Of a DNA stretch of 41,987 nucleotides, positions 17,268 through 41,495 are shown piece after piece (within the stretch, counting starts at the first letter, position 1; each line of letters begins with the position of its first letter). The DNA is from an uncultured Planctomycetaceae bacterium (lineage in GTDB: Bacteria; Planctomycetota; UBA1135; GCA-002686595), in the NCBI GenBank assembly GCA_964615935.1, contig CAZTTG010000052.1, positions 1 to 41,987 of the forward strand, read 5' to 3'. Made by a program: the position numbers and the translations under genes. Under the pieces are notes generated by a model. It saw only the letters and a program-made list of their open reading frames with translations. It made no database searches and was not told where the DNA came from.

Positions 17268-17614
17268 CTCGCGCCGCAGGCGCACCGCGGCGGCTCCCGG
17301 TTCCGACCGGGGGCCGCCGCTCCTCGGTCCCGGTCACCGTCTGCGGATTTGGGGAATCCTAGGGTCGGGGCGCGCGGCGGCCGACCCACCGGTTCGCGCC
17401 TCCCGGAGCCTCGGGGGGGCGCGAGCCCGCTGCAAATCCCCGCCGCGTCGGGACTTGTGGTCTCCGTGGGCACGGAGGTCCGCGGCACGCCCCCGGGCGC
17501 GACGGTTGCGGCGCGCCCCGCCCGTTTGCCTCCCCGATACACTGGCTCCCGTTCGTTCGCCCGCCCCCCCGGGGCGCCGGCCTGCCGCGAGGGCCCGATT
17601 GGAGGGAGGTCGCC

Positions 17615-18873: not shown

Positions 18874-18875
18874 CC

Positions 18876-21623: not shown

Positions 21624-22005
21624 CCGGTTGGTCAGCACCCCTCCCTTCCAAGATCTTCCGGTGGGAAGTTCACCTCATTCCGCGGCCCCCCCGGGCACGG
21701 GATGAGGATCTCGTATCAGAGCCTGTAACTCCAATGCGTTATAACGTCCGTCCACCCGACTTTCTGAATGCAATTGGGAGGAATGTTTCACGTCCGCAAC
21801 ATTCGAGTCCAGCCCTCACGAGCAACCCTGGGGGGTGGGGTGACAAAAAGGTGCCTTGTGGCTACGAAATGGATGTGAACTTCCTTCCCGAAACGCACTT
21901 GGGCCATGGTTCGCATTTGGGAAGTCCCAGGGCCGACGGGCCCCGATCCACCGATTCCGGCCCCGCTCCTCGACCAGGGGTCCGGGGCCGGCGGGAGCGC
22001 CGACC

Positions 22006-24621: not shown

Positions 24622-25746
24622 TCAGCCCCGCCCCTCCTCCAGCGAGAGCCTCACGTCCGCCCGTACCCCCTCCTCCGGCTCGTTCCCGGCCGCCCGCTCC
24701 ACCGCCGCCAGCACCCCCCGATCCCGCCAGTAGCCCCGCACCAGGGCCCAGGCCGCCGCCTCCCGCACGATTCCCGCGGGATCCCGCTCCAGGGCCCCGA
24801 GCAGCGCGCCTCGACCCTCCTCCGAGCGGACGCTCGCCAGCGCCAGGGCCGCATTCCGCGCCAGCCCCGCACGCCGGGGGCGCCGCACGGGCGATCCCCG
24901 GAGCCAGGCAGCGAAGTCCTCATCCCCCCTCGCCTCGAGGAAGCCGCTCAGCCCCGTGCCCTCGAGCGCCGGGTGGAGGCCGAAGCGCTCGGAGCGATCG
25001 GGAGCGCCGGATCCCCATGGGCACACCTCCGAGCAGACGTCGCACCCGAAGACCCGGTCGCCGATCCTCTCCCGGATCCCCCGCGGCACGGACCCCCGGT
25101 TCTCGATCGTCTGGTAGCTGAGACACCGCCCCGAATCCACCACCCCCGGCTCGAGGATGGCCCCGGTGGGGCAGGCCTCCAGACACGCCGTGCAGGTCCC
25201 ACAGGATCCGGGAGGCGACGCCGTGGCGGGCTCCAGCTCCTGCTGCAGGATCAGCTCCCCGAGGAAGAACCAGGGGCCGAAGTCCGGGTGCAGGAGGTTG
25301 GCGGCCTTGGAGAGGAAGCCGAGCCCCGCCCGGGCCGCGTGGGAGCGCTCCAGGAGGGGTCCGGCGTCCACGATGGAACGGGAGGAGCCGCCCGCGAGGC
25401 CCTCCCGCGCCAGGCGGCGCGCGAGCTTGCGGAGGGCCCTCCCCAGGACCCCGTGGTAGTCGCGGCCGGCCGCGTAGCGCGCGATCCGGCCGCCCCCCGG
25501 CAGCTCGACGGCCGCCCTCGAGTGGGCCACCCCGACCACCACCAGGCTCCGGCCGCCCGCCAGGACCCGGCGGGGATCGGCGATGCGCTCCCGGTTGCGC
25601 TCCAGCCAGCCCATGTCCGCGTGAAGGCCGGCATCCAGCCAGCGCTCGAACCGCCGCCGGTCCGGCGGCGGGATCAGGGGAGCGATCCCCGCCAGGTCGA
25701 AGCCCAGCTCCCGCGCGATCTCCAGGACCCGATCCTCGGGGCGCAT
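24622..25746 (-). CDS. queG: Epoxyqueuosine reductase QueG
   Basis: 374 aa. Two 4Fe-4S cysteine clusters (CGTCTACLEACP, CDVCSEVCPWG) and C-terminal HEAT-like repeats match QueG architecture. Confidence 0.85.
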   Translation of the reverse strand: MRPEDRVLEIARELGFDLAGIAPLIPPPDRRRFERWLDAGLHADMGWLERNRERIADPRRVLAGGRSLVVVGVAHSRAAVELPGGGRIARYAAGRDYHGVLGRALRKLARRLAREGLAGGSSRSIVDAGPLLERSHAARAGLGFLSKAANLLHPDFGPWFFLGELILQQELEPATASPPGSCGTCTACLEACPTGAILEPGVVDSGRCLSYQTIENRGSVPRGIRERIGDRVFGCDVCSEVCPWGSGAPDRSERFGLHPALEGTGLSGFLEARGDEDFAAWLRGSPVRRPRRAGLARNAALALASVRSEEGRGALLGALERDPAGIVREAAAWALVRGYWRDRGVLAAVERAAGNEPEEGVRADVRLSLEEGRG

Positions 25747-26092
25747 GGCCCGATTGTCGCGAGCCCCGCCGGCGGGCTCAACGCAGCGTCGGAGGGGGCC
25801 CGCCGGGCCCCGGGGCGGGGAGGCTCACCGGTGGAGGGGCGCCGGAGCCTCGCCCACACGCGCTCCCTCCGTCACAAAGCCCTTACAGAGCTCCAGTTAG
25901 GGCGTCGTAACCCCAGCAGGGTCGGACATTCGGCTAGATTCGCCGAAGTGGCCCGGGTAACCCCCAGGCCGGGCGGCCATAGTAGAATTGCGAACCTGTT
26001 GAGGGGGTTTCGGGTCGGCGCGCGTCCCGGGACCCACCCCCACCCTCAGACCCGGACTCTCCCCTGATGCCGACTCTGACAGGCCGGACCCG

Positions 26093-27022
26093 ATGATCGA
26101 GTCCGACTCCCCTTCCACCGGTCTGACGACCTCGGTGGGCATCGATCTCGCCACCTTGAGCACCAAGGTCGCCGGTCTGAAGGGGGAGGTTCCGGCGGGC
26201 GAGATGAAGCGCCTGCGGGAGGTGCTCGCGCAGGTCGAGCGCAGCCCGGAATCCCTGCGGGACGCGGTCTCGACGCGCCTGATGGACGTCTTCCGGCTCA
26301 AGTCCAGCCGCGCCTGCTTCGGTCTCCTGTACGAGCTCAACAGCCAGCACCTGCTGGCGCAGGTGGCGAGCTGTTTGCGGCGCTACGCCAGCCGATCCGA
26401 TCCGAGGGACGTGCTCCAGGAGGTCTTCTTCAACGTCTACCGCTACCCGCACCGCTTCAACTGCGAACGCGAGGACGCCTTCCGAGTCTGGTCGGCCATG
26501 ATCGTTCGCAACACGGTCCTCAAGCACCTGCGCTCACAGGGCCGCGGCGGTCGGATGGAGGTCCCCTTCGAGGACCTGTCCGAGCAGCCCGAGGTCCGCA
26601 CCAGCAATCCGCTCCGCGGAGTCATCGAGCGCGAGAGCGACGGAGTGTGCGGGCAGGTGTACGTCCTGTACCTCCACCTGTACCTGGAGTTCTACGGCAT
26701 GCTCTCCGAACGGGAGCGCCGGGCCATACATCTGGTCGAGGTGGAGGACAGCAGTTACCGAGAAGCGGCCGAGGTGCTCGGCATCAAGCTCGAGAACCTG
26801 AAGATGGTGATCTTCCGGGCTCGCCGGAAGATCCATCGCTCCATGAGAAGAGTGTTCGACGGTCTTCCCCCGGACTGCCGTCCCGCCCGCGATCCCAAGC
26901 CCTCCGCCGCCGAGCGCGCCCTGCCGGAGCCCACCGGACTGAACCGGGACCTGGCCGGGGCGCCGGCTCCGCGAGAGGCCCGGGATCGTTCGAACCCTGT
27001 CAAAGGGGGTCAAGATGAGTAG
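26093..27022 (+). CDS. ECF-family RNA polymerase sigma factor with N- and C-terminal extensions
   Basis: Region 2 (LQEVFFNVYRYPHRFNCEREDAFRVWSAMIVRNTVLKHLR) and region 4 (LSERERRAIHLVEVEDSSYREAAEVLGIKLENLKMVIFRARRKI) are both present. It overlaps the next gene by 8 nt. Confidence 0.8.
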   Translation: MIESDSPSTGLTTSVGIDLATLSTKVAGLKGEVPAGEMKRLREVLAQVERSPESLRDAVSTRLMDVFRLKSSRACFGLLYELNSQHLLAQVASCLRRYASRSDPRDVLQEVFFNVYRYPHRFNCEREDAFRVWSAMIVRNTVLKHLRSQGRGGRMEVPFEDLSEQPEVRTSNPLRGVIERESDGVCGQVYVLYLHLYLEFYGMLSERERRAIHLVEVEDSSYREAAEVLGIKLENLKMVIFRARRKIHRSMRRVFDGLPPDCRPARDPKPSAAERALPEPTGLNRDLAGAPAPREARDRSNPVKGGQDE

Positions 27023-28073
27023 CGAAGGCCTGACCAGCCTGTGCGACCACTTCCAGCTGGACCTGTCCTGCCTGGTCGATGGTGAGCTCGAAGAGGTCGC
27101 CGCCACCCGCGCCATGTTGCACCTCGAGTCCTGCGGCGCCTGCCGCGACTTCTTCGAGGACACGCGCACCTGTCTCCAGCTCAACAAGGACATGTCCGAC
27201 CCGGACCGGCTCTTCGCCCGAATCGCGACCCTGACGGGGACCGATCTGGAGGCCGAGGTCCTCGGAATCGACCTGGTGAGCCGGCTGGCGACGATCTTCT
27301 ATCAACTCGGCAAGGCCTACCTGCTGACGGCCGTGGACGAGGGCTTCCGCGACCGCGTGTTCGAGCAGGCCCTGCCCCTCGAGACCACCCGCACCCGCGG
27401 CCGCGGGTTCGTGGATGGGGTCCTGACCTCGGGTCAAGACGAGGCCGGCGGCGTCGACTGGCGCCACGCTCGCGGCGTCCTCAACGGACGTCTCGACCGG
27501 ATCGAGAGCCCGATGGAGAAGGCCCGGCGCCTGCTGAGCGAGGCGATCGACGCCGATCCCTCCCACGAGGAGGCGCGCCTGTACCTGGCCTACCTGCACA
27601 AGAAGGAGGGCAAGAGGGTCCTCGCAGCGCAGGAGTATCGCCGCCTCTTCCGGTCGGCGATCGAGGAGAACAACCGCGGCCACGCCGCGATTCAGCTGGG
27701 AATCCTCAACGCGGACGAAGGCAGCTATCGCAAGGCCATCGCCTGCTTCCGCTGGATCACAATGAGCGGTCTGGCAGACCGCGACGGGCGGTTCTACGTC
27801 GCCCGCTTCAACATCGGGATGGACTGGGCGCTGGCCGGGAACATGCGGCGTTCCCTGGCGGCCTTCCGCGAGCTGCTCGACCACCACCCGGATCGCCTGG
27901 GTGAGGTGTCGGAGCTCTTCGCGAGCTCGCCCAAACTGCGCGCGGAGATCGAGTCGCAGGACGGCTTCCCCGAGGAGCTGCTCGCTACCTGCCCCGAGCT
28001 CTTCCGCAGCCCGCCCGATGAGGACCGCGAAGGGGATGGCGACCCGGCCTCGGCCGGGCCCACGGAGCTCTGA
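27015..28073 (+). CDS. Anti-sigma factor, ZAS-type (zf-HC2, HLESCGAC) with TPR-like C-terminal domain; no TM segment
   Basis: The H-x3-C-x2-C motif sits near the N-terminus, immediately downstream of the ECF sigma gene. Helical repeat content includes LYLAYLHKKEGKRVLAAQEYRRLF. I see no hydrophobic helix. Confidence 0.7.
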   Translation: MSSEGLTSLCDHFQLDLSCLVDGELEEVAATRAMLHLESCGACRDFFEDTRTCLQLNKDMSDPDRLFARIATLTGTDLEAEVLGIDLVSRLATIFYQLGKAYLLTAVDEGFRDRVFEQALPLETTRTRGRGFVDGVLTSGQDEAGGVDWRHARGVLNGRLDRIESPMEKARRLLSEAIDADPSHEEARLYLAYLHKKEGKRVLAAQEYRRLFRSAIEENNRGHAAIQLGILNADEGSYRKAIACFRWITMSGLADRDGRFYVARFNIGMDWALAGNMRRSLAAFRELLDHHPDRLGEVSELFASSPKLRAEIESQDGFPEELLATCPELFRSPPDEDREGDGDPASAGPTEL

Positions 28074-28075
28074 AA

Positions 28076-28738
28076 ATGAAACGCAAGACACTTCGGCAAT
28101 CGGCGACCGCACGGTACAGCGCCCCGTGGGTCGCGACGTTGGTGATGGCGCTCGTCCTGGGGACCGGGGGAACCCCGGGCTTCGCCGGTGACGGCGGCGG
28201 ATCCAACGAGGGCGGGGAAGAGGTCGGGACCCTCCCGGTCGTCTCGCAGAGGACCGCCCTCGACGAGCTGCCCTACGGCAAGCTCTCCGACCTGTACAAG
28301 CCGGCCTTCGTGCTGGTGGGCGACCATCAGGACATTCTGAACCTGATCACCTACGCCGGCGGCACCGGCTTCGTGACCGTCCACGAGTCCGCTACCAAGG
28401 ACCGGACCCTGTACGCCTTCCACGGCCAGGTCCAGGTGGCCCTCGACCGGGCGACCTTCGAGCTCGGGCGCGTGGCGGTCCACTTCCGGCCCGGCGCCGA
28501 GTACGTCGGCGGCCTGTCGGCCGTCGAGTGGGACGGCTACTGGAGCGGCCGCCGGGGTCTGAGCGTGCAGGGCGGCTTCTGCGTCCCGCTGGAGCGGCTG
28601 GTGAACGCCGGCCTGCTCGACCGGGCGCCGGCCACGCTCTGGAGCGCCAGCCCGAAGGGCGAGATCAGCATGCTGAGGATGTCCACCCGGGGCACCCAGC
28701 TCGTCCTCGAGCAGGAGCGCAAGCAGCTCGAGCTCTGA
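28076..28738 (+). CDS. Secreted hypothetical protein (220 aa)
   Basis: Signal peptide (WVATLVMALVLGTGGTPGFA). It starts 3 bp after the anti-sigma stop. No domain recognised. Confidence 0.5.
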   Translation: MKRKTLRQSATARYSAPWVATLVMALVLGTGGTPGFAGDGGGSNEGGEEVGTLPVVSQRTALDELPYGKLSDLYKPAFVLVGDHQDILNLITYAGGTGFVTVHESATKDRTLYAFHGQVQVALDRATFELGRVAVHFRPGAEYVGGLSAVEWDGYWSGRRGLSVQGGFCVPLERLVNAGLLDRAPATLWSASPKGEISMLRMSTRGTQLVLEQERKQLEL

Positions 28739-28831
28739 GCCCTCGCCGGCGAACGACATCAGCGAGCCCGGTCGGGGACGAGCCCCGCCCGGGCTCGCGG
28801 CCTGTTCGGGCCTCCCCCGACGCGCCCCGGG

Positions 28832-30427
28832 GTGCCCTCCGAAGGCCTCATGCAGCCCGCCGCGGCTCCGATAACCGGGGCACGGGGGGAACGCGCCATG
28901 GAACCGGTCTTCGCTCAGATCCACTTGCCCCCGGTGCTGCGCCCGGCGACCGCCCTGCAGTCCGACCTGTCGGCCGTGCTGAGGGAGGGGAGGGTCCTGG
29001 CGGGAGAGGTGCTCCAGAGCCTGGGCGGCGGCACGGTCCTGGTGGGGATCGGCCGCCACCGGGTCCCGGCCCGATCGCAGGTCGAGATGCAGCCCGGCCA
29101 GCGGTTCCTGTTCCAGGTCGTGGGGAGCGGCGACCAGCTCGCCCTCCGCCTCATCGCGCCCGCCGCGGAGGGGGAGTCCCCCCTGCTGCGCGCCCTGCGT
29201 CGGGTGGCCGGGCTCGATCGGCCGGCGGGAGAGCTCCTGACCGAGCTGGAGCGCGTCCTGACCGCCCCCCGCGGTCGGGGCGAGCTCGACTCCCCCGCCG
29301 CGGGACGGCTGCTGGCCGAGCTCGACGCCCACGTCTTCCGGGCGGGCCTCGGCGGGGAGGACCTGAGGCGGATCCTGCGGCGATCGGGCGCCGGCTACGA
29401 GGCCGGTCTGGTCCGGGAGGGCGTGGATCGGCTCGGCCCCGGACGCGTTCGGGTCCTCGGCCGCCAGCTCGCCCAGAACCTCCTCGAGGGCCTGGCGTCC
29501 TCGCCCGAGCCCCCCGCTGGCGAGCCGCCGGAGCGCGGCATCGCGATCCTCCGGGAGGCCCTCCGGGAGGCCGTCCTGGACGCCCTGCGCGGGGGAGGGG
29601 ACGAGGAGGGCAAGAGCCCTCCCCGGGCCCGCCCGCTCCCTGCCCGCGCCCCGGGCGGATTCGAGGAGCTGGCGCGCGACCTGCCCGAGATCTTGAGGAA
29701 GGGGATCGCGAGGCTGCCCGAGGGAGCCCTGCGCCAGCGCGCGACCGCCCGTCTGCCTCGGGTGATCGGGAGGCTGGGCGGGCTCGAGCTGCGCTGCCTG
29801 GTCGTGCGCATCCTGGGGGAGCCCCTGGAGGAGGGGACCGCCGGGGCGCGGGCGCGGGGCGCGGCGGCCGAGGGCATCGAGCCCGATCCGGCGCCGCTCG
29901 ACCTCAAGGGAAAGCTGCTCGCCGCCCTTCGCGAGCTCCCCGAGGGCCGGCTGCGCTCGGCCCTGATCCGCGCCGCGGGGGGCATCGAAGCCGAGCAGCT
30001 CCTCAACCTCGCGCGCCAGGAGTCCAGCGAGCCCCTGCACTGGAGCCTGCCCGTCGCCGAGGGGAGCCGGCTGAGCTCGGCTCACCTCTTCCATCAGCGG
30101 ACCTGGGAGGACGCCGAGGGCTCCCGGGCGCCGGGCGCACCCCTGCACCGATTGACCCTGGCAGTGGACCTGACGGGCACCGGAGCCGTGCGCGCCGATC
30201 TGGTGCTACGAGCGGGCTCCCTCTCCGTGCGCGTGCTCGCGGCCGAGGAGGAGGTGGCCGAACGGCTGCGGCAGGAGATCCCCGCCCTCGTCCAGGCCCT
30301 GGCCGCCGGGGGGCGCCGGGTCGGCGTCCGGGTGGACGCGGGCTCGCTCGAGGAGGTCGAGGTGGGCGAGCGGGCCCTCGACATCCAGCTCCTGCGCGAG
30401 CAGCACCTGATGGATGTGGAGGGCTGA
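28832..30427 (+). CDS. Protein with FliK-like C-terminal (hook-length control, Flg_hook) domain; start uncertain (alternatives at 28850 and 28898)
   Basis: The C-terminal LTLAVDLTGTGAVRADLVLRAGSLSVRVLAAEEEVAERLRQEIPALVQALAAGGRRVGVRVDAGS has the FliK C-terminal pattern (L.L.P..LG.V.V.L.....L.V.F.....EVR..L...LP.LR..L...G). The upstream part is Leu/Arg/Gly-rich. Confidence 0.55.
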   Translation: MPSEGLMQPAAAPITGARGERAMEPVFAQIHLPPVLRPATALQSDLSAVLREGRVLAGEVLQSLGGGTVLVGIGRHRVPARSQVEMQPGQRFLFQVVGSGDQLALRLIAPAAEGESPLLRALRRVAGLDRPAGELLTELERVLTAPRGRGELDSPAAGRLLAELDAHVFRAGLGGEDLRRILRRSGAGYEAGLVREGVDRLGPGRVRVLGRQLAQNLLEGLASSPEPPAGEPPERGIAILREALREAVLDALRGGGDEEGKSPPRARPLPARAPGGFEELARDLPEILRKGIARLPEGALRQRATARLPRVIGRLGGLELRCLVVRILGEPLEEGTAGARARGAAAEGIEPDPAPLDLKGKLLAALRELPEGRLRSALIRAAGGIEAEQLLNLARQESSEPLHWSLPVAEGSRLSSAHLFHQRTWEDAEGSRAPGAPLHRLTLAVDLTGTGAVRADLVLRAGSLSVRVLAAEEEVAERLRQEIPALVQALAAGGRRVGVRVDAGSLEEVEVGERALDIQLLREQHLMDVEG

Positions 30428-31985: not shown

Positions 31986-32063
31986 GATGAGCCTCGAAAG
32001 CGGTTGCCTTCCATGTCGACGGCCGCCCGACCCATGCGTCGGGCGGCATTTGAATCCAGCAGT

Positions 32064-33107
32064 TTAGCGCAGCCGGCGGGGGCGGCAAGGGGAGGGGACG
32101 TCCCGGGCCAGAAGGTCGCTCGGACCGGGCCCGCGCGCGCCTTCGGCGGGGGGGAGCGTGCCCCGCGCCCCGCCCGGTCTCCGCGGGGCTCGAGCGGGCG
32201 GAGCCGCCCGGACCTCGTCCAGCCAGTCGCCGACCTGCTCGGCGGCGCCGCGCAGGAACAGGGGCGAGGTGTGTCCCACCGGGACGTCCAGCACGCGGTC
32301 ATCGCCCTCTCCGAGCGCCGCGGACCAGGGCGGGATCACCAGGTTGTCGCACGTCGAGACCAGGCTGTGCACGGGGACCTCGCTCTGCCGATCGGCGGAG
32401 AGGCTCGAGAGGAGGGCGCTCCCCGGCCGCAGGTCGCGCGAGCTCCGGCCGCAGCCCAGGGAGGCCATGCGCGTGCCGCGGTGGGGGGAGGCGATGCTGA
32501 TCACCACGGCCACCCGGTCCCGCCGCCCGGAGAGGACGCACATCCGCGCGAGCACGCCCCCCATGCTGTGGCCGACGATGGCGATCGGGCGATCCCCGCC
32601 GGCGCGGTGGACGCTCGCGACCCTCCGCCGCACGAAGACCGCGTTCGCGCGCAGCGACCTCAGGGTGGAGGGCAGATTGCCCAGGACCGGCTGGTACCCC
32701 CGGGCTGCGAGCCGGCGCGCGAGGGGCCACATGACGCCGGCGTTCTCCAGGTATCCGGCCAGGAGCAGGACCGGCATCCCTCCCCCCGAGGTCAGCGGCG
32801 CGCAGCGGAAGGGCCGCAGGCCGTGCGCGAGCTGGAGCGCCCAGGTCGCGGCCTGCCAGAGCATCTCGACCGGGAGCCACAGCAGCCGGCGCGGGATGGG
32901 GACCACCCCGGGAGCGAAGGCCGCCCCCCGATCCGGATCGGGGGGAATCCCGCGTCCCAGGAGCGAGGCCACGAGGGAGGTCCCGAGGACGAAGACCGGC
33001 GCCGGGAGCACCAGGAGCAGTGCAGCGGCGAGCGCGAGGTCCAGGATCAGGCCTTGGGTCACGGGAATCCCGGCGGCCGCCCGGGCGCCGCCCCACCCCG
33101 CACCCAT
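32064..33107 (-). CDS. Membrane-anchored alpha/beta hydrolase (lipase-like, GHSMGG nucleophile elbow)
   Basis: Start trimmed to MGAGWGG..LILDLALAAALLLVLPAPVFVLG (TM anchor). VLLLAGYLEN...IVGHSMGGVLAR is a G-x-S-x-G serine hydrolase motif. The gene is upstream of, and co-oriented with, the cysteine desulfurase. Confidence 0.6.
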   Translation of the reverse strand: MGAGWGGARAAAGIPVTQGLILDLALAAALLLVLPAPVFVLGTSLVASLLGRGIPPDPDRGAAFAPGVVPIPRRLLWLPVEMLWQAATWALQLAHGLRPFRCAPLTSGGGMPVLLLAGYLENAGVMWPLARRLAARGYQPVLGNLPSTLRSLRANAVFVRRRVASVHRAGGDRPIAIVGHSMGGVLARMCVLSGRRDRVAVVISIASPHRGTRMASLGCGRSSRDLRPGSALLSSLSADRQSEVPVHSLVSTCDNLVIPPWSAALGEGDDRVLDVPVGHTSPLFLRGAAEQVGDWLDEVRAAPPARAPRRPGGARGTLPPAEGARGPGPSDLLARDVPSPCRPRRLR

Positions 33108-33542
33108 CGTAGCGCCTCGAGGGCGGGGCTCGCGGCCCGGTCCCGGGGAGCCGGGGGGCCTCCGCGCCCGGGGCCGGGACGGGTGGCGCTCGAGGGGCCA
33201 CTCGGGGTCCCGCCCGCCAGGAGGTCCGCCGGAATGGCGGGGAATCTCCTGCCCACCCCGCAACCACACCGTGGTGGGGGCGTCCCCGAGGGCGGTGGGG
33301 CCCGGTGGATGCCGCGACGGACCGCGCGACTCGAGCGAAACCGGGCACCGGCGCGGGGATACGCCTCCCACCCCGCGCCCCGGGGGCCCGCCGGCTCTCC
33401 TCGGGGCGGGGGCGGCGGCCGGGCGTCGATTCGGCAGAAAGACGTCTACAGGCCCCCCCGGCCGGCGTCTCAGGATGCATCACCCGCGGAGCAGACCCTG
33501 GCAGGGGGGCGAGCGGGGGCCCGAGGCGGCACACTGAAGACG

Positions 33543-34130
33543 ATGGTTCGAATCCTGGGGAACATGCGCGAGACCGAGCTGGAGGGCACGCTGGTTCGGG
33601 GCGCCCGCGCGTGCGACCGCCGCTCCTTCGACGGTCTGGTCCGGCTCCACTTCTCCCGGATCTACTCGCTGCTCTTCCGCCTGGTGGGGAACCACGAGGA
33701 CGCCGAGGACCTGGCGCAGGAGTGCTTCGTGCGCGCGTGGCGCTCGATGCGCTGGTTCCGCCAGGAGGGCGCCTTCTCCTCTTGGCTCCGCCGCATCGCG
33801 CTGCACCTGGGCCGCGACCACCTGCGGGCCCGCGGGCGGCGCGTCCCCGAGGGGCCTCTGGCGGTGGAGCCGAGCCCGCCGGAGCCGGGCCAGGGGCCGC
33901 CCGAGGAGACCCATCGCCGGGAGATGATGCGGGCCCTGCGCGCCGCGCTGGAGCGACTCCCCGAGCGCCTGCGGGCGCCCTTCCTGCTCCGCGTGTTCGA
34001 AGGGCTCGAGTACGACGAGGTGGGACGCACGACCGGGGTGACCCCGGGGACCGCGCGCATGCACGTCATGAAGGCCAGGCGCCTCCTCCTGCGCTGGATG
34101 GAGCCCTGGCTCGAGAGGAGGGCGCCGTGA
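33543..34130 (+). CDS. ECF-family RNA polymerase sigma factor (RpoE-like, 195 aa)
   Basis: Region 2 (DAEDLAQECFVRAWRSMRWFRQEGAFSSWLRRIALHLGRDHLRAR) and region 4 (ERLRAPFLLRVFEGLEYDEVGRTTGVTPGTARMHVMKARRLL) are both present. Confidence 0.8.
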   Translation: MVRILGNMRETELEGTLVRGARACDRRSFDGLVRLHFSRIYSLLFRLVGNHEDAEDLAQECFVRAWRSMRWFRQEGAFSSWLRRIALHLGRDHLRARGRRVPEGPLAVEPSPPEPGQGPPEETHRREMMRALRAALERLPERLRAPFLLRVFEGLEYDEVGRTTGVTPGTARMHVMKARRLLLRWMEPWLERRAP

Positions 34131-35989
34131 GGATCTGTCGAAGGATGCGGGCCCGGATCGAGCGGTCGATGGACCGCGGGCTCACCGCGGATCAAGAGCT
34201 CCAGCTCGAGGAGCATCTGGCCGGCTGCCCGCGCTGCGCCGACTACCACGATCGGCTGGGCGCCCTGGAGGAAGCCCTCTCCCGCCTGCCCGAGCCGCCC
34301 GTCGATCGGCTCGACGTCGAGGGCTCCGTGCTGGCGATCGCCGCCCGCATCGAGGCCGAGGAGCTCGCCTCGGCCCGACGGGGCCGCCCCCGCATCGCGC
34401 GCGTCGCCATGGCGGCCGCAGCGCTGGCCATCGCCGCGGGAGCCCTCTACTGGAAGCTCGCGAGCGAGGGCTCGCCCGCGCCGCCGGTTCCCGAGCGCGT
34501 CGCGGAGCAGCCGCCGGTGGTGGCGCCCCCACTCGAGCCCTCCCCGCCCACCCCGCCGCGGGACGGGCTCGACCTGCCGGCCCCCGATCCCGTCGAGCTG
34601 GCCACCGGTCCCCCGCTCGACCCCCGACGACACGAGGCCACCCGCGCGGCCGTGGGCGAGCACCTGCTCGCGGCCCTGGAGGGCCTGCCGCCCGAGGGAG
34701 GCGCGGCCGACGTCCGGCTCTTCGCGGAGCGCTTCGACGAGCGCGCCCGGCAGCTCGATCGCGACGGCTGGCCGGTCGAGCGCCTGGTCAGGAGCTTCGT
34801 CGTCTCCGGGGATCCCGAGCTCGCGCGCGCGGCGGTCCGCTATCTGGGGCTGCGCGGCGACGCCCTGTCCCTGGTGAGACTCGAGCGTCGCCTGGAGGAG
34901 GGGCTCCAGGAGGCCGCGGATCCCCTCGCGAGGGAGGTCTGCCTGGCGCTCCTGGACGCCGGCGAGGGCGGCCTCGGCCGCCTCGACGCCGCGGCCCGAT
35001 CGAGCGAGCTGCGCTGGCTGATCCTCTCCCGACTCACCGTCGATCCCGAGCGCGCGGCGCCCTGGCTGGAGGGCCGGCTGCGCTCCCTCGCGCGGAGCGG
35101 GGGAGCCGAGGAGCTCGAGGCGGAGCTGCTCGCATGCCTCGTCGGCCTCGGCCGCCCGGCCGCCGAGGGCATCCTGCGCCTGCGGCGCGAGGGGCACCTG
35201 GAGGACGGGCAGGCCCTCGAGGCCCTGTCGCAGGTGGAGGGCGCCGGAGCGGTTCTGGTGGCGGCGATCCCGGCCCGCGGCCGCGCCGAGGCGGGCTTCC
35301 TCCTGGACGCCTTCGCGCGCCTGAGGCCGCCGGCGGCCCTGCCCTGGATCGGCGAGCGCTGCGGCGGCGCGCGGCTGGGCGGAGCCGCGCTGGCCTGCCT
35401 GGGGTCCTTCGACGGCCCCGAGGCCTTCGAGGTGGCGGTCGAGCTCTGGGCGAGCCGGATCCTCGGCAACGGCGAGCTCGAGGACGAGGTGCGTGCGATG
35501 ATCGCGCGCAACCCGGAGGCCGCACTGGAGCTCGCCGAGCGCTGGACCGAGGACCGCGACGGCGCTCGCGCCGGCGACCTGCTCGGACTGCTGGTCAGCG
35601 CCGAGCACCCGGCCGGCGCCCCGGCCCTGGTGATCCTGGCCTCGCGCGACCTGCTCTCCGACGGCGATCGTCAGCTCGCGGCCCAGTCGGTCGGCGAGCA
35701 CGGCACCCTCGAGGACGCGCGTCTCCTCTCGCTGGCCCTGCGGGGCATGCAGCGGGACGAGCGGCGGCTGGCGGCCGCCTGCGTCCACTCCATTCATCAG
35801 CTCTCCGGCGAGGACGGCGTCCTCGAAGCCCTCTCGGCCGCGCCCGAGCGCACGGTCGCAAGGGTGCTCGGAGTGCTGCAAGAACGCGACGGTACGAATC
35901 GAACGGCGGTCTCGCTGGTGCAGCTGGCGAGGGCCCTCGAGCCGACCCTGGCGTCGCACGGCCCGCAACCCTGGAGAATCAAGCCATGA
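34127..35989 (+). CDS. Anti-sigma factor: N-terminal ZAS (HLAGCPRC), single TM segment, about 500-aa extracytoplasmic HEAT-like repeat domain
   Basis: A GTG start overlaps the sigma stop (GTGA); the ATG at 34145 is an alternative. The TM segment is IARVAMAAAALAIAAGALYW. Repeated helical units such as AVRYLGLRGDALSLVRLERRLEEG resemble PBS-lyase HEAT repeats. Confidence 0.65.
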   Translation: MRICRRMRARIERSMDRGLTADQELQLEEHLAGCPRCADYHDRLGALEEALSRLPEPPVDRLDVEGSVLAIAARIEAEELASARRGRPRIARVAMAAAALAIAAGALYWKLASEGSPAPPVPERVAEQPPVVAPPLEPSPPTPPRDGLDLPAPDPVELATGPPLDPRRHEATRAAVGEHLLAALEGLPPEGGAADVRLFAERFDERARQLDRDGWPVERLVRSFVVSGDPELARAAVRYLGLRGDALSLVRLERRLEEGLQEAADPLAREVCLALLDAGEGGLGRLDAAARSSELRWLILSRLTVDPERAAPWLEGRLRSLARSGGAEELEAELLACLVGLGRPAAEGILRLRREGHLEDGQALEALSQVEGAGAVLVAAIPARGRAEAGFLLDAFARLRPPAALPWIGERCGGARLGGAALACLGSFDGPEAFEVAVELWASRILGNGELEDEVRAMIARNPEAALELAERWTEDRDGARAGDLLGLLVSAEHPAGAPALVILASRDLLSDGDRQLAAQSVGEHGTLEDARLLSLALRGMQRDERRLAAACVHSIHQLSGEDGVLEALSAAPERTVARVLGVLQERDGTNRTAVSLVQLARALEPTLASHGPQPWRIKP

Positions 35990-37779
35990 TCCCGCTCTTC
36001 CTCTTCGGCCTCGGCCTCCTGCCCGTCGCGGACCCGCCGGCGAGCGATCCCGACATCATCCTGCGTACCTATGACCTCCGACTGGCGGCTCCCGTCGTAG
36101 ACCACGGCGAGGTCTGGGAGTGCCTGCTGCCCAACATGGGCGGCCATACCCGCCTGGACTTCGAATCGGAGTGGGAGAGCCAGTTCCTCGGCGAGGACGT
36201 GATGTCCCTGATCTTCGAGCTCTACGATGAGGAGTTCGAGTACGCGGACCGCAGGATCGAGTACCTGGACGACGGCCGGCTCCTGGTCGGCGGGCCGGCT
36301 TCGGTGCACCGGGGGGTGCAGGGCATCCTGGGCTTCCTGGAGAGGGCCGTCGCCTCGAACGCTCGGTTGCGGGTGGACGTGCTGCGCCTGGACGGCGACG
36401 CGCCCATCGCCTGGCCCTCGGGCTCGCTGATCCCGGAGGGCGAGGCGCAGAGCCTCGTCGCCGCCGCCGCGGCGCACGGCATCCACCGCAGCTACGAGCT
36501 GGACCTGAACCCCGCCCGCGTCTCCAAGCTCGACGCGGTCCGCGAGGTGCCGATCCTCTTCGACTACGACATCGAGATCGCCCAGGGATCGTACATCTAC
36601 GACCCCATCGTGGTCCCGCTGACCGTGGGCACGCAGCTGGCGGTGCGCTGCGCGCCCGCGCCCGGAGGGACCTGGCTGGCCCTCACGCGGCGGTGCGCCG
36701 AGCAGGTCGGGGAGGTCCGCAGGACGGAGTTCTCGGTCGGCGGCCGCATCAGCCACGAGGGGGGCACGCCGATGGAGATGCGCGGTCCCAAGGGCATCGA
36801 GAGCGTCGACATGCTGAGCCGCTCGCTGGCCACCTGCGCCTTCCTGCCCGATGGACGCGCCCTGGTGTACCGCTCGGGGCTGGACGTGGTCACCGGCGGC
36901 GGCGAGGAGCTCCTGGTCCTGCGGGTCGAGGGCGAGATGCCCGAGCCGATCCAGACCTGCGAGCTGGATGGGGGCGATCGGCGCCTGCAGCTCGTGGACG
37001 CGGGGTGGATCCAGCCCCCGTACCTCCGCTTCCAGGAGGGGATCCTGAGCGGCGAGCACCTGCCCCGCAACGCCTGGTACTGGCTGGAGCGCATCCTGTA
37101 CGGGGACGACGCGGATGTCGCCACCTCGGTCGTCCTCCACACCGCCGAGACCGACCGCGTCAGCGACCTCCTGAACGACTACCACGGGGAGGAGAACGCG
37201 CTCATGACCCTGGGGCCCTGGGTGGTCGCGGTTCCCATGGTCGAGGAGGGCGAGGACCCGCAGCCGATCCAGGCCGATTCACCCGCCTTCCAGCTGATCG
37301 AGGCGCCCGAGGTGGTCGAGGTCTCGGTCTCCCTGGTCCGCACCGGGGAGGAGAGGCCCAGGGTGGCCGGATGGGACCTTCCCCTGGTGATCGGCTACCC
37401 GTCGGTGGCGGTGCTCGGCGGCGAGAGCCTGTACCTCGGCGAGTACGACGTCGAGGTGGCCCAGTACTGCTCCGCCAACGATCCCCTGTCTCTGTACTCC
37501 TTCGACGGCCTGGCCCTGTGGCTGCAGCCGATCCGATCCGCGAGCGGAGAGGTGGTGCTGGAGGTGCGCGCGCGGGCCCGGCTGCGCGACGGTGACTTCG
37601 AGGACGTCGATCTGGGCTACGGGGTGACCAAGTGGATCCAGAAGGTGGAATACACCGAGCTCTCCGCAAACCGCCAACTTCGCTTCCGCACCGGCGGGCG
37701 CGCGACGCGCACCGCCGTCCTGGGCGACACGACGGGGACCGAGGAGGGCGGTCTGGCCCTGGAGATCACCCTGCGCTGA
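35986..37779 (+). CDS. Secreted hypothetical protein, 597 aa, no recognised domain
   Basis: ATGA overlap with the anti-sigma stop. Signal peptide MIPLFLFGLGLLPVADPPASDPD. GC3-rich codon usage. It is the 3' two-thirds of track ORF 35134..37779; the 5' part of that ORF overlaps the anti-sigma gene in another frame and was discarded. Confidence 0.55.
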   Translation: MIPLFLFGLGLLPVADPPASDPDIILRTYDLRLAAPVVDHGEVWECLLPNMGGHTRLDFESEWESQFLGEDVMSLIFELYDEEFEYADRRIEYLDDGRLLVGGPASVHRGVQGILGFLERAVASNARLRVDVLRLDGDAPIAWPSGSLIPEGEAQSLVAAAAAHGIHRSYELDLNPARVSKLDAVREVPILFDYDIEIAQGSYIYDPIVVPLTVGTQLAVRCAPAPGGTWLALTRRCAEQVGEVRRTEFSVGGRISHEGGTPMEMRGPKGIESVDMLSRSLATCAFLPDGRALVYRSGLDVVTGGGEELLVLRVEGEMPEPIQTCELDGGDRRLQLVDAGWIQPPYLRFQEGILSGEHLPRNAWYWLERILYGDDADVATSVVLHTAETDRVSDLLNDYHGEENALMTLGPWVVAVPMVEEGEDPQPIQADSPAFQLIEAPEVVEVSVSLVRTGEERPRVAGWDLPLVIGYPSVAVLGGESLYLGEYDVEVAQYCSANDPLSLYSFDGLALWLQPIRSASGEVVLEVRARARLRDGDFEDVDLGYGVTKWIQKVEYTELSANRQLRFRTGGRATRTAVLGDTTGTEEGGLALEITLR

Positions 37780-37898
37780 GCCCGCAGTGAGCTCGCGTCC
37801 GGCCAGCGACCGCGGTCGGGTCCACGGGGACCCGGCCGCGCGCTCTTTTCTTCGATCGCCGCGCAACCGCCGCCGAGCGGAGCGGTCCGCGGGATGCC

Positions 37899-39401
37899 AT
37901 GGTGCTTCCTCGCCTCGCATTCCCCGCCGTCCTGTGCGCCCTATTCGCGGTCTCACCTGCGCCCCCGGACGATCCGCCCACCCTGAAGGAGCTCGAGCAG
38001 GGCCTGCGCGAGCCGCGGCCGTCGACGCGCCGCAGCGCGGTCAGGCGTCTGGCGGGGGAGGGATCGCGGCGCGCCTGGGAGCTCGTGGTGGGGGCCCTCG
38101 CCGACTCCGAGCCGGAGGTGGCGGACGAGGCCCAGATCCGGCTGGGCGAACTCTCCGACGAGCGCGTCCTGCGCGACCTCCTCGGTCGCAAGGGCCTCGG
38201 GGCCAGGGAGGAGCTGGTGCGGCTGCGCGCGGCCGAGGCGCTGGGGCGCGTGAGGCTCGCCGTGAGCGGCGAGGACCTCGCCGGGGCGGTGCGCTCCCGC
38301 GACCACGAGGTGGCCCGCACCCTGATGTGGTCGATCGAGCGCCGCGCGCGGGCCGGCACCCTGGCCGGCGAGCCGGAGCGCAACCGGCGGGCGGCGGCCA
38401 GGGCCTTCCGCATGGCGCGCGAGGGCGCGGTCCGCGGCGCGGCCCTCCTGGCGCTCGAGGCCGTGGACCCGCGCGCCGCCCTCGAAGAGGTGCCCGAGGC
38501 CCTGCGCGACAAGCGGCCGCAGGCTCGCTGCGCCGCCATCGCCGTGGCGGCGCGCAGCGGCGATCCGGCGGCGCGCGATCGGATCCAGCTCCGCCTCCGC
38601 GATCCCGATCGGGCCGTGCGGCTGGAGGTGGTCGCGGCCCTGGAGGCGATCGCCGACCGCGCCGCGGCGCGGGCCCTGGTCGAATGCCTGTCCGAGGAGC
38701 CCGAGCTGCGCTCGCGGTGGCGCGCGGTCGAGGCCTTGCGGCGCCTCTCGGGCCTGCGCTACCGGCTCGACCCGCGGCCCTGGAAGCTCTGGGCCGATGG
38801 GCTGGAGGAGGGCTGGCGCCCTTCGCTCGCCAGCCTCACGGAGCGGCCGCCGCGGGGGACCGGCTCGGCCTCCTTCGCCGGCCTGCCGGTTCTCTCGGAG
38901 CGGGTCTGCTTCCTGATCGACCTCTCGGGCTCGATCCGCCGCCGCGCCGAGGACGGCCGGACGCGCAAGGAGGTGGTGGACGGCCTCCTGCGCAAGGCCC
39001 TCGAGGGGCTCCCCGAGACCACGCGCTTCAACCTGATCCCCTACACCGCCGTGCCGCACCCCTGGCGGGAGCGGCTGCAACCGGCCAGCCCCAGGAACGT
39101 GCGCGCCGCCCTGGCCTGCTTCGAGGCCTGCGCCCAGAGCGGGCGCGGAGCCTTCTACGACGCGGCCCTGCTGGCCCTGACCGACCCCGAGGTCGACACC
39201 CTGATCGCCCTGACCGACGGCGTGCCCACCGGCGGCACGCGCTGGAACATGGAGCTGATGGTGACCCTGCTCGCGGAGCGGCACCGCTGGGCCAAGGTGG
39301 CCATCGACTCGGTCCTGGTGGACGCCAAGCGAGGCACGCTCCGCCACTGGGAGCGGCTCGCCGACGTCACGGGAGGGCGCTCGATCGCGGTCGAGCTCTG
39401 A
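37899..39401 (+). CDS. Secreted HEAT-repeat protein with C-terminal von Willebrand factor A (vWA) domain
   Basis: Signal peptide MVLPRLAFPAVLCALFAVSPA. HEAT-like repeats run through the N-terminal 300 aa (AVRRLAGEGSRRAWELVVGALADSEPEVADEAQIRLGEL ...). The MIDAS-like DxSxS motif is in VCFLIDLSGSIRR, and a T residue sits in LIALTDGVPTGG. Confidence 0.7.
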   Translation: MVLPRLAFPAVLCALFAVSPAPPDDPPTLKELEQGLREPRPSTRRSAVRRLAGEGSRRAWELVVGALADSEPEVADEAQIRLGELSDERVLRDLLGRKGLGAREELVRLRAAEALGRVRLAVSGEDLAGAVRSRDHEVARTLMWSIERRARAGTLAGEPERNRRAAARAFRMAREGAVRGAALLALEAVDPRAALEEVPEALRDKRPQARCAAIAVAARSGDPAARDRIQLRLRDPDRAVRLEVVAALEAIADRAAARALVECLSEEPELRSRWRAVEALRRLSGLRYRLDPRPWKLWADGLEEGWRPSLASLTERPPRGTGSASFAGLPVLSERVCFLIDLSGSIRRRAEDGRTRKEVVDGLLRKALEGLPETTRFNLIPYTAVPHPWRERLQPASPRNVRAALACFEACAQSGRGAFYDAALLALTDPEVDTLIALTDGVPTGGTRWNMELMVTLLAERHRWAKVAIDSVLVDAKRGTLRHWERLADVTGGRSIAVEL

Positions 39402-39647
39402 GCACGGCCTCCCGGCCGCCCGCAACCACGCCTCGGTTCCTCCCCCGGAGCCGCGACTAGCCGCGGGCGCCATCATCTCCAGCCGAGAGGGTCGATCGAC
39501 GGGGCCTCCGAGCGGGGGGCGCGTCGCCCGAGAAGCCGACCTCGGTCAGCGCGCGCCCGCCGCGCCGCTGAGCCCAGGCGCTGCCGGGGGCGCCACGGGT
39601 GGTGCCAGGACGGGGCGCCGGGCCAGGGCAATTGCGTGCCAACACCG

Positions 39648-39653
39648 TATAAT
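39648..39653 (+). promoter_or_regulatory. Exact TATAAT hexamer 43 bp upstream of the next gene start
   Basis: A perfect TATAAT in a roughly 70% GC background. The upstream -35 is poor (AGGGCA or GGGCAA at 16-17 bp spacing). Downstream, the hairpin CGCTCC-ccgga-GGAGCG overlaps a GGAGG Shine-Dalgarno. Confidence 0.25.
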
Positions 39654-39695
39654 ACAACTTCGCTCCCCGGAGGAGCGGTCCTGGAGGGTGCTTCC

Positions 39696-40331
39696 ATGAG
39701 CCGCTGGATTCTGATCGTCGTCATCGCCGTCGCCGCATTCCTCGTCGTCCAACTGGCACAACGGGAGGGGGACGCCGGGCCCGAGGTGGTGGCACCCCGC
39801 TCCTCGCCCGAGGCGCCGGCACCGCGGGCAGAACCGGGCGGCGGGATCGAGCTGGAATCGCCGACGCAGACCGATCCGACCGCGGGAGCGGGTGCCCCAC
39901 CTGCGGCGGCGGGAACGGCTGCGGAGCCGGGGCCATCGGGAAGCGGGGATCTCTCCCTCGTCACCGGGAGCCAGCCGGGGAACCGGGAGGAGTACTTCCT
40001 CGACAAGTACGGTCACATGGGGGTGAAGGAACTCGAGGCTGCCCTGGCCCAGCTCGAGCAGGGGGTCCTCGACCAGCAGAATGTACTCTTCGAGGAGCGC
40101 TTCGAGCGCGGGCTCTACCTCGTCCACCGACCGGGCGATCCCGCCCTACCCGACTGGCCCACCGGTCCCGGAGGTCGCCGGCCGGTCGTCGAGAGCAGCA
40201 CGCTCACCGACCCCTATACGGGCAATGTGGAGGCTCGCATCTCCCACCTGCCCTTCGAGGAGTACCCCGCCTTCTACGAACTCCTCGCTGAGCGCGACTG
40301 GCTGAAGAAGAGGGCCGGGAGCTCCCAGTAG
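39696..40331 (+). CDS. N-terminally anchored hypothetical protein (Pro/Ala/Gly-rich linker plus about 120-aa C-terminal domain)
   Basis: Start taken at the internal ATG with a GGAGGG Shine-Dalgarno 8 nt upstream. MSRWILIVVIAVAAFLVVQLAQREG is a signal anchor. The GTG-initiated upstream extension in the track (39636) is unlikely to be translated. Confidence 0.45.
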   Translation: MSRWILIVVIAVAAFLVVQLAQREGDAGPEVVAPRSSPEAPAPRAEPGGGIELESPTQTDPTAGAGAPPAAAGTAAEPGPSGSGDLSLVTGSQPGNREEYFLDKYGHMGVKELEAALAQLEQGVLDQQNVLFEERFERGLYLVHRPGDPALPDWPTGPGGRRPVVESSTLTDPYTGNVEARISHLPFEEYPAFYELLAERDWLKKRAGSSQ

Positions 40332-40442
40332 ATACCCGACCGTGGCGCCGGACGGGACGCAGCCGCACCCGGCCCACGAAGGAGGCGGCGCCGCCCGAGA
40401 GCGGCGCCGCCCATGGTCAGGCTACCGGCGATCCCCGGAGGA

Positions 40443-41495
40443 TCACTGGAACACCAGCTCGACCGCGTCTGTCAGCCCGACGCCGAAGCCGGTGGGGTCC
40501 TGTGGATCGCGGAACCAGCCCTGATAGAACACATGGGTGCCGGGCGGATCGCCCGGGCAGTTCGCCATCCAGGACAAAGTGCCGTCGCAGAGGCCCGGGG
40601 TGCCACCGGAGCCCTGGGGAGGCGTCCGCTTGATGGGCGGAGTCACGCACAGGGTGCCACCCATGAAGGAAATGGACGCCGCTGCATAGCCGTAGAAGAT
40701 GATGCCGGGCTTGTTGCCCCCCTCGACTTGGATGGCGTCGACTGTGTAGTTGCAGGCCCCGGTGACCGGGCAGCCGGTGTTCACCCCGCCGGGACCGTTC
40801 GTCTGGATCGTCGGGGTGCAGCCGCTCGAGCTGGGTTTCGGCGTGCAGTAGATGACCGGGTTGCAGGTCGTACCCAGGTCGACCTCCATGTCATCCATCA
40901 TCAAGTAGCCGGTGTTCGTGTAGTTGCTCTTGAAGTTGATGCGACTGATGGGAGTGGTGCAGCCGGAGAAATCCCAGCCGTGCCACCTCCACTGGCAGTC
41001 GTTGGCATCGGTGAGAACGTCGGTGGCAACTACATTGCCGGCCGAGTCCATGAAGGTGGCCGTGAAGCCGGGCGCTCCGGGGTGGTTCATCCCGAAGTAG
41101 CCGCCGAAGCGAGAGACGGCGGTGGTGCCGAAATCGTACTCGGCGCCGCCGTTGTTGGTGCTGCTGCCGGAGCCGTAGAGCTTGGTGCCGCCGTGCTCCT
41201 GGATGGTGCAGGAGAAGCCCCAGCCTCCGGTGATGTGGGCGGCGGCGCCGTTGGGCGTGCAGAGGTCAGCTGCACCACCGAACACGCTCGGGTTGATGCA
41301 GGTCGTGAACTGACCGGACACCTGCGTCTCGAAACCCTCCGAGATGGTGCCGGTGAACGAACCGATCGACGTCTGGCATTGCGAATGGGCAGTGCCCGCC
41401 AAGGCGACCATGCCCAATGCAGGGCTCCTGACATAGGTGCGTGGAGTGGCGGCATTGGCCGAATGCCGTTCATTCACGATGAGGGGGTGCGTCAT
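40443..41495 (-). CDS. Cys/Gly/Thr-rich secreted protein (paralog 1), unknown function
   Basis: 350 aa with 16 Cys and many GT/GS/NT motifs. A possible internal start MVALAGTAHS would give a weak signal peptide. The gene's GC is somewhat lower than the window average. It ends ...PTGFGVGLTDAVELVFQ. Confidence 0.5.
   Translation of the reverse strand: MTHPLIVNERHSANAATPRTYVRSPALGMVALAGTAHSQCQTSIGSFTGTISEGFETQVSGQFTTCINPSVFGGAADLCTPNGAAAHITGGWGFSCTIQEHGGTKLYGSGSSTNNGGAEYDFGTTAVSRFGGYFGMNHPGAPGFTATFMDSAGNVVATDVLTDANDCQWRWHGWDFSGCTTPISRINFKSNYTNTGYLMMDDMEVDLGTTCNPVIYCTPKPSSSGCTPTIQTNGPGGVNTGCPVTGACNYTVDAIQVEGGNKPGIIFYGYAAASISFMGGTLCVTPPIKRTPPQGSGGTPGLCDGTLSWMANCPGDPPGTHVFYQGWFRDPQDPTGFGVGLTDAVELVFQ

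Follow-up and report, generated by a model that had tools for sequence, protein, structure and literature searches.

The 41,987-nucleotide contig CAZTTG010000052.1 (assembly GCA_964615935.1) of an uncultured Planctomycetaceae bacterium—the whole of it being referred to below as the window—carries a module of three genes that encode a sigma factor of the extracytoplasmic function (ECF) type, an anti-sigma factor of the zinc-binding anti-sigma (ZAS) type with a single transmembrane (TM) helix and a large domain of HEAT-like repeats, and a protein of 597 aa. Judged from its structural model, the last of these is a remote tandem secretin-like protein that is not placed in the curated Secretin family. 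The three genes form an operon conserved in a clade of Planctomycetota. An earlier sequence-only reading of the same DNA had proposed a module of four genes, the fourth encoding a secreted protein with HEAT-like repeats and a von Willebrand factor A (vWA) domain; the HEAT-vWA gene is, however, a bystander adjacent to the triad and not a part of the module. The secretin-like structural assignment and the synteny of the triad can be regarded as solid and the signalling mechanism proposed below as plausible. The chances that the HEAT anti-sigma binds to the secretin-like protein and passes on the state of its ring to the sigma factor, by a logic resembling that of FecA/FecR/FecI, are considered evenly balanced.

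Since the G+C content of the window is about 74%, long spurious open reading frames (ORFs) are frequent on both strands, and the frames were chosen by codon-position G+C, i.e. from a frame plot of third codon positions (GC3). Between 33.5 and 39.4 kb, the GC3 signal tracks four consecutive plus-strand frames and so bears out the four co-oriented genes of the sequence-only reading (Table 1). The stop/start overlaps claimed for the first two junctions are exact, both of 4 bp—GTGA between the sigma stop and the anti-sigma start, ATGA between the anti-sigma stop and the ATG of the 597-aa gene—and a gap of 119 bp separates the 597-aa gene from the HEAT-vWA gene. Scans of the window with Rfam and for tRNAs revealed no RNA genes.

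Concerning the conservation of the triad, the order sigma, anti-sigma, secretin-like gene is found in 14 of 14 Planctomycetota relatives with upstream sequence, that is in 11/11 genome loci with full flanks as well as in L001, L043 and L045 (related loci are given by such labels throughout), and five further, more distant triads were found. A homologue of the anti-sigma C-domain lies directly upstream of the secretin-like gene in L002, L004, L005 and L007; indeed, on every related contig with upstream sequence, the gene directly 5' of the secretin-like gene is such a homologue. The 4-bp overlap is kept between sigma and anti-sigma in 11/11 loci and between anti-sigma and the secretin-like gene in 7/11, which fits stoichiometric co-production. 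Synteny in relatives, on which the sequence-only reading had staked its proposal in advance, is thus kept for the first three genes.

The sigma gene is preceded by a promoter-like motif with the layout typical of ECF promoters, implying autoregulation; as a sequence feature it is a candidate for the autoregulated promoter of the operon. In the relatives, the motif upstream of the sigma gene has the form GTCGAC-N16-CGTCT, and the pattern [GA][TG][CA][GT]AC-N16-CGTC was counted within 220 nt upstream of that gene in 14 of 15 related loci against a background of 0.007 per 220 nt, the count being post hoc, as the pattern was built from the same sequences. Two further matches of the pattern in the window, at 32015-32040 (+) and 11350-11325 (-), lie inside or antisense to coding regions and are probably due to chance.

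The sequence-only reading had found no recognisable domain in the 597-aa protein. This stands at the level of curated families, there being no family match in either Pfam or NCBIfam, but not at the level of the fold. The AlphaFold model, for which an alignment of eight family sequences served as input, is reasonably confident (pTM 0.79, mean pLDDT 74) and consists of a beta-alpha-beta-beta-alpha domain followed by long beta-hairpins of 16-20 residues, twice over. A Foldseek search with this model agreed independently, retrieving the secretin BfpB (E=9e-6, probability 1.0). The model displays both elements by which a secretin is recognized, namely the beta-core of long tilted hairpins with inner and outer barrel elements and, ahead of the core, N-type ring-building domains similar to Secretin_N/STN.

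In the eight-sequence alignment, the N-terminus resembles secretin N-domains and the motif DYDVE(I/V)AQ..DP occurs twice per chain; the internal duplication is also seen when the N-terminal half of the family is aligned by hhalign with the C-terminal half (probability 97%, E=5.6e-11). Within the first copy of the motif, located in a low-pLDDT loop of the model, E197, I198, A199, Q200 and P207 are invariant among the eight sequences, and E197, A199 and P207 are conserved in at least 90% of a larger set of 62; in the second copy, A492 is invariant and V489 and E490 reach at least 90% in the same 62 sequences. At the profile level, the evidence leads in this direction too but is marginal: the top match of the family in the PDB is the secretin core of BfpB (E=0.013 for the whole family, E=0.13 for module 2), the alignment covering module 2, and a profile restricted to that module brought no gain. 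The Pfam family Secretin_N is weakly touched by seven of the 62 members.

A word-indexed search with the 597-aa protein retrieved seven relatives only, with 29-35% identity. An exhaustive profile search collected 1,755 family representatives with E<=1e-3, of which 273 reach E<=1e-30; with few exceptions they are 570-620 aa long. The genome matches of the family are metagenome-assembled genomes of Planctomycetota in 35 of 35 cases. An N-terminal hydrophobic, export-like segment is present in 61 of 62 members, including the one from the window (35986-36050). Members of the wider family also occur without the sigma/anti-sigma pair, so that the secretin-like fold does not require the regulator; their neighbours are mixed (an HlyD-like protein, a PMT-like protein, a group-3 sigma) and offer no functional lead. 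Tandem arrays of two to three secretin-like family genes or modules were seen in L025 (6743-10273), L027 (6923-10630) and L040 (6566-10137), and the 1204-aa protein P0150 represents a whole tandem duplication within one chain. The 1232-aa protein P0016 was considered as a Rosetta-stone fusion of the anti-sigma with the secretin-like protein and rejected: its conserved anti-sigma C-terminal motif is replaced by an out-of-frame-looking sequence before the junction, so that a frameshift across the 4-bp overlap is more likely, and it was not used as evidence.

The surroundings of the triad in relatives bear on the kind of secretin that might be involved. A gene for a PilB/GspE-type ATPase (T2SSE + MshEN) is found upstream of the triad in seven of 11 relatives, joined by a gene for a stand-alone receiver domain in four and by a PilT-like ATPase gene in three; it is positioned about 2.5 kb upstream in L013, L015, L016 and L019 and divergently upstream in L012, L014 and L018, the seven loci representing two synteny types only. 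The presence of secretion ATPases near the triad fits a genuine secretin-type function. Together with the secretin fold, it could even be taken to mean that a type IV pilus, or a machine like the type II secretion system, has its true outer-membrane secretin in the 597-aa protein, the machine being monitored or controlled by the sigma/anti-sigma pair in the manner of secretin-stress responses. Such ATPase genes are, however, absent near the triad in the window, L001, L043 and L045, the two synteny types may go back to few independent events, and genes of the pilM/N/O/P or gspC type were not seen; moreover, a tandem architecture without a match to PF00263 is unlike every characterized secretin. 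This pilus or type II secretin reading is considered unlikely.

The anti-sigma factor encoded by the second gene matches zf-HC2 of Pfam (6.9e-6, 26.5 bits against a cut-off of 22.2), and of its zinc-site residues, C4 is conserved in at least 90% of 15 homologues and the other three, H30, C34 and C37, in all of them. With H-x3-C-x2-C in an N-terminal helical anti-sigma domain and its gene beside that of its sigma, it belongs to the class I ZAS proteins. The GTG start is supported by a Shine-Dalgarno sequence AGGAGG 7 nt upstream and by the conservation of residues 1-6, Cys4 included, in the homologues. The AlphaFold model comprises N-terminal helices, one TM helix, a tether and an all-alpha solenoid. 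The TM helix is preceded by an Arg-rich stretch on the cytoplasmic side, the two together implying the membrane topology; beyond the helix, aa 113-162 form a disordered linker rich in Pro, modelled with low confidence, and about 508 residues are extracytoplasmic.

The profile of the anti-sigma C-domain family retrieves alphaRep/HEAT chains from the PDB (E=1.6e-27), and HEAT_2 is matched by five of 15 family members; with the window anti-sigma alone, no Pfam HEAT match was obtained. The C-domain is thus composed of tandem helix-turn-helix repeats seen by a HEAT profile, as expected for HEAT/ARM repeats, and the large (about 500 aa) extracytoplasmic HEAT-like domain of the ZAS-TM anti-sigma was read correctly from the letters. 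A word-indexed homologue search with this protein returned three matches only.

The first gene encodes, as the sequence-only reading had stated, an ECF sigma factor. It matches Sigma70_r2 (1.6e-17, aa 32-100) and Sigma70_r4_2 (1.6e-14, aa 130-182) of Pfam and passes TIGR02937 with 88 bits (cut-off 42.9); with only the sigma-2 and sigma-4 domains, a length near 200 aa and neither region 3 nor region 1.1, it falls in group IV. The best scores were obtained with RpoE-like models of NCBIfam, every equivalog model remaining below its own cut-off. Its orthologues in the syntenic loci are about 50% identical.

As to the fourth gene, its product, predicted to be secreted, does combine HEAT-like repeats with a vWA domain bearing a metal ion-dependent adhesion site (MIDAS). 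HEAT_2 is matched at 8.8e-17 and VWA_3 at 3.9e-4, the latter below the Pfam cut-off in the window copy, PF13768 being recorded for many of the homologues. Among 120 homologues, the MIDAS residue T383 is conserved in at least 90% and the others, D341, S343, G344, S345 and D440, without exception, in agreement with the signature DxSxS...T...D.

The proposal that this protein and the 597-aa protein both dock on the sensor domain of the anti-sigma through shared HEAT repeats could draw on the adjacency and common orientation of the genes, both here and in another assembly of this organism, on the predicted export of both proteins and on the HEAT repeats present in both the anti-sigma and the HEAT-vWA protein. 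The repeats, however, lend it no specific support: in hhalign, the HEAT domain of the anti-sigma and the HEAT region of the HEAT-vWA protein share nothing beyond the generic repeat type (probability 0.4%), and a specific kinship of the two regions was rejected. Nor is the gene syntenic with the triad in any relative examined. In 0 of 20 independent related loci with a readable downstream flank does a HEAT-vWA gene follow the triad, the genes found there encoding BipA, EF-G, L28, a kinase, MMPL and others. In the genome of L014, the triad (637-653 kb) and the HEAT-vWA orthologue (about 242 kb) are located on the same contig about 400 kb apart; in that of L012, they are on different contigs. In both genomes (L046, L049), the orthologue has a neighbourhood of its own—a 443-aa protein without a Pfam match and an MFS_3 transporter divergently upstream, a protein with a double nitroreductase domain and M16 peptidases downstream—that may point to the real function of the family.

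The HEAT-vWA family also differs from the triad in its conservation, with 45-56% identity over at least 265 matches as against about 30% for the triad proteins. In the window, no copy of the ECF motif is present upstream of the HEAT-vWA gene, and a terminator-like hairpin follows the stop of the 597-aa gene by 32 nt; it is the sole plus-strand site in 33000-40500, where 0.7 per region would be expected on both strands, and it is, from its sequence, a candidate for the 3' end of a three-gene transcript. A four-gene module with joint docking of the two proteins on the anti-sigma is regarded as barely credible, the synteny having largely refuted it already.

For the triad itself, the following mechanism is envisaged. 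The sigma factor would drive its own operon from the GTCGAC-N16-CGTCT promoter, and the anti-sigma would keep it at the inner membrane by means of its zinc-binding domain. Tethered by the Pro-rich linker, the HEAT solenoid would reach across the periplasm and bind the secretin-like protein, with which it is co-translated, at the ring-building domains of the latter; the secretin-like protein would be assembled as an oligomeric ring, either within the outer membrane or beneath it. If the state of this ring changed, because it failed to assemble, was gated or became occupied by a fibre or a substrate, the anti-sigma would be freed or exposed and would then lose its activity, probably through proteolytic cleavage, as do other single-pass anti-sigmas; the sigma would be released and its release amplified through autoregulation. 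In cell-surface signalling (CSS), the anti-sigma is bound at its periplasmic domain by the STN-type signalling domain of an outer-membrane transducer, which protects it against proteolysis; inner-membrane proteins, anti-sigma factors among them, have periplasmic domains to which domains of the secretin-N/STN type bind (PMC11637429). The secretin fold of the middle protein makes the CSS analogy more concrete. The surface-signalling-like ECF system with an extracytoplasmic partner, put forward in the sequence-only reading, thus survives in the middle gene, which is always adjacent, mostly coupled, co-diverging and of secretin fold, but not in the HEAT-vWA protein as a partner.

The chief rival, beside which the other alternatives are smaller, does without any contact: the HEAT anti-sigma would sense an envelope cue alone, and the secretin-like protein would be the main product of the autoregulated operon, i.e. 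an inducible outer-membrane channel or ring. Its gene is indeed part of the transcription unit headed by the conserved ECF promoter, and the members of the family that occur without the sigma/anti-sigma pair indicate that the protein can function alone; ECF operons often include their own targets (PMC7826278). Such an output-only role would, however, not require the 4-bp coupling to the anti-sigma kept in the seven loci mentioned above, nor the constant immediate neighbourhood of the two genes, nor the fact that the secretin-like protein follows the anti-sigma C-domain in its divergence more closely than it follows the sigma. The pairwise divergences of the C-domain and the secretin-like protein correlate with r=0.94 and, given the sigma, with a partial r=0.74, above the other two partials, although the mirror-tree pairs are non-independent and come from few clades and are weak evidence; compared as sequences, the two are consistent with co-evolution. 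An output-only role is possible, yet doubtful.

Several points weigh against secretin-coupled signalling as proposed here, beginning with the weakness of the divergence correlation just given. The secretin assignment is built on a model from only eight sequences, the profile matches are marginal (E=0.013, 0.13), and none of the 62 members matches the Pfam family Secretin (PF00263) at E<=1. A Lys or Arg within the first eight residues is found in 10 of the 62 and absent in 52, which makes the export signal atypical. The family extends beyond the sigma/anti-sigma pair, and no secretion ATPase was found near the triad in the window. The contact of the anti-sigma with the secretin-like protein is a prediction, as are the outer-membrane site and the oligomerization of the latter, and the same data are compatible with the secretin-like protein as a mere regulated output.

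The predicted nature of the outer-membrane insertion and the atypical N-terminal signal also leave room for a soluble periplasmic partner, which would use the secretin-like fold as a scaffold and shield the anti-sigma from proteolysis until a ligand arrives, in the way of RseB. The gene order sigma, anti-sigma, periplasmic partner is that of rpoE-rseA-rseB (PMC7826278 for the conserved context), whose partner is considered to influence how stable the anti-sigma is. The 597-aa protein has, on the other hand, no MucB/RseB match in Pfam, and oligomeric secretin rings typically display what its model shows, namely long beta-hairpins (here of 16-20 residues) and ring-building domains; a soluble RseB-like role appears distinctly improbable. 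Going beyond the mechanism of secretin-coupled signalling as such, the tandem family could be imagined as a Planctomycetota-specific outer-membrane ring with two pseudo-subunits per chain, hard-wired in the triad subfamily via the HEAT "arm" to the ECF anti-sigma—a new trans-envelope class of secretin-coupled ECF signalling spanning the enlarged planctomycetal periplasm. This is a speculation and quite unlikely to hold in full; the ring might be one of the as yet unassigned planctomycete outer-membrane complexes, such as the crateriform structures mentioned in PMC11131199.

Table 1 Features of the triad and of the adjacent HEAT-vWA gene in the window
Feature	Position	Strand	Details
ECF-type promoter-like motif	33444..33469	+	GTCTAC-N16-CGTC(TC), 74-99 nt upstream of sigma start
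ECF (group IV) sigma gene	33543..34130	+	195 aa
Anti-sigma gene, ZAS-type, single-pass	34127..35989	+	620 aa, GTG start
TM helix of anti-sigma	34397..34462	+	aa 91-112; helix in AlphaFold model, conserved hydrophobic block in family alignment
Extracytoplasmic HEAT-like alpha-solenoid of anti-sigma	34622..35953	+	aa 166-609, about 460 aa, ~28 short helices in AlphaFold model
Tandem secretin-like gene	35986..37779	+	597 aa, ATG start
Module 1	36058..36999	+	predicted secretin-N-like ring-building beta-alpha-beta-beta-alpha domain (aa 25-123) and long-hairpin beta core (aa 126-338)
Conserved motif 1	36562..36606	+	DYDIEIAQGSYIYDP, aa 193-207; family alignments
Module 2	37126..37773	+	predicted second ring-building-like domain (aa 381-436) and second beta core (aa 443-596); AlphaFold model
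Conserved motif 2	37441..37485	+	EYDVEVAQYCSANDP, aa 486-500; 62-sequence alignment
Intrinsic-terminator-like hairpin	37811..37850	+	13-bp stem with 11 GC pairs, loop ACGG, then CGCTCTTTTC (T-tract); minimum free energy and centroid folds
HEAT-vWA (MIDAS) gene	37899..39401	+	500 aa, product predicted to be secreted

Some further observations were made around the triad and elsewhere in the window. A Ser/Thr kinase gene is located 3' of the triad in L013, L016 and L019, followed by a gene for a planctomycete-type Sigma70_ECF sigma in L016 and, by gene size, in L013. The window itself contains, at 26003-30427 (+), another arrangement of sigma, anti-sigma and unannotated partner: first comes a second ECF-like sigma (r2 + r4_2), whose N-terminus carries a long extension provided that the ORF start is right, next an anti-sigma that combines zf-HC2 with TPR repeats, then a gene of about 238 aa bearing no annotation, and last a protein of 562 aa that matches Flg_hook at its C-terminus (FliK hook-length control; E=1.8e-10). 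At 17363-21623 (+), a 329-aa protein with Sigma70_r4_2 as its sole match precedes an overlapping ORF of 1106 aa, and the two may be another sigma-like regulator pair. A gene for a QueG-like epoxyqueuosine reductase with a C-terminal HEAT_2 region (24625-25824, -) illustrates that HEAT_2 matches are present elsewhere in the genome, too; it lies close to a QueA (Queuosine_synth) gene (21844-23082, +), both being ordinary housekeeping genes.

ECF sigma factors are very numerous in Planctomycetota, and for most of them the partner that does the sensing has yet to be worked out. The present results assign a testable partner to one ECF group and provide a provisional annotation for about 1,750 representative "hypothetical" proteins. 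The divergent two-core branch, missed by current family models, widens the secretin superfamily and offers a target for structural work, and its strict, coupled linkage to the ECF pair suggests a route by which the state of an outer-membrane channel could be reported to transcription, in parallel to TonB-dependent CSS and with different parts. No account of this family, of tandem secretins or of an ECF/secretin-like module was found in the literature searched, an earlier listing of the neighbourhood among ECF groups as an unnamed "conserved hypothetical" being possible. What is rated as new is a conserved type of envelope partner for an ECF sigma/anti-sigma pair that would itself be, according to its model, a new branch of the secretin superfamily.

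Compared with known systems, the 597-aa protein may be set first against the secretins, which serve type II and type III secretion, type IV pili and filamentous phage as gates in the outer membrane. Characterized secretins have, to our knowledge, one core per chain. Unlike GspD/PulD/XcpQ, PilQ, InvG, RcpA, BfpB and phage pIV, the present family has two secretin-like modules per chain and no PF00263 match, a family-specific DYDVE(I/V)AQ..DP loop at the place of the gate hairpins in solved structures, neither an S-domain nor a pilotin having been seen, and a gene that is, within the triad subfamily, obligately linked to sigma and anti-sigma. The anti-sigma shares with the class I ZAS proteins RsrA, ChrR, RsiW and DdvA the HxxxCxxC motif with an upstream Cys in an N-terminal helical anti-sigma domain, and it gave weak profile matches to RsiW and DdvA as well as to RsrA and anti-sigma models of NCBIfam; it differs from all four in its periplasmic HEAT solenoid, unmatched by any of them in the profile search. 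In membrane-bound ZAS proteins, redox or zinc sensing is not implied.

With RpoE-RseA-RseB, the triad has in common a sigma, a single-pass anti-sigma and a periplasmic partner in one autoregulated operon (PMC7826278 for the conserved context). RseA, however, is not of the ZAS type and has a small periplasmic domain, and RseB, of the MucB_RseB fold, is unrelated to the 597-aa protein, which lacks the corresponding Pfam match. The closest parallel in logic remains the CSS systems FecA/FecR/FecI, FoxA/FoxR/FoxI and PupB/PupR/PupI, which, like the triad, consist of three neighbouring genes: one for an ECF sigma, one for an anti-sigma that crosses the membrane once and has a large periplasmic domain, and one for a protein of the envelope with secretin-N/STN-type domains on its periplasmic side. 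The parts are nevertheless different, and the triad is not counted as a member of that family: there is no TonB-dependent transducer, whose place would be taken by the secretin-like protein, Plug, TonB_dep_Rec and STN of Pfam being unmatched in all four proteins; the anti-sigma combines zf-HC2 with HEAT repeats and has no FecR match, whereas FecR consists of a beta-solenoid and STN; and the gene for the envelope protein comes last in the Planctomycetota triad, translationally coupled to that of the anti-sigma.

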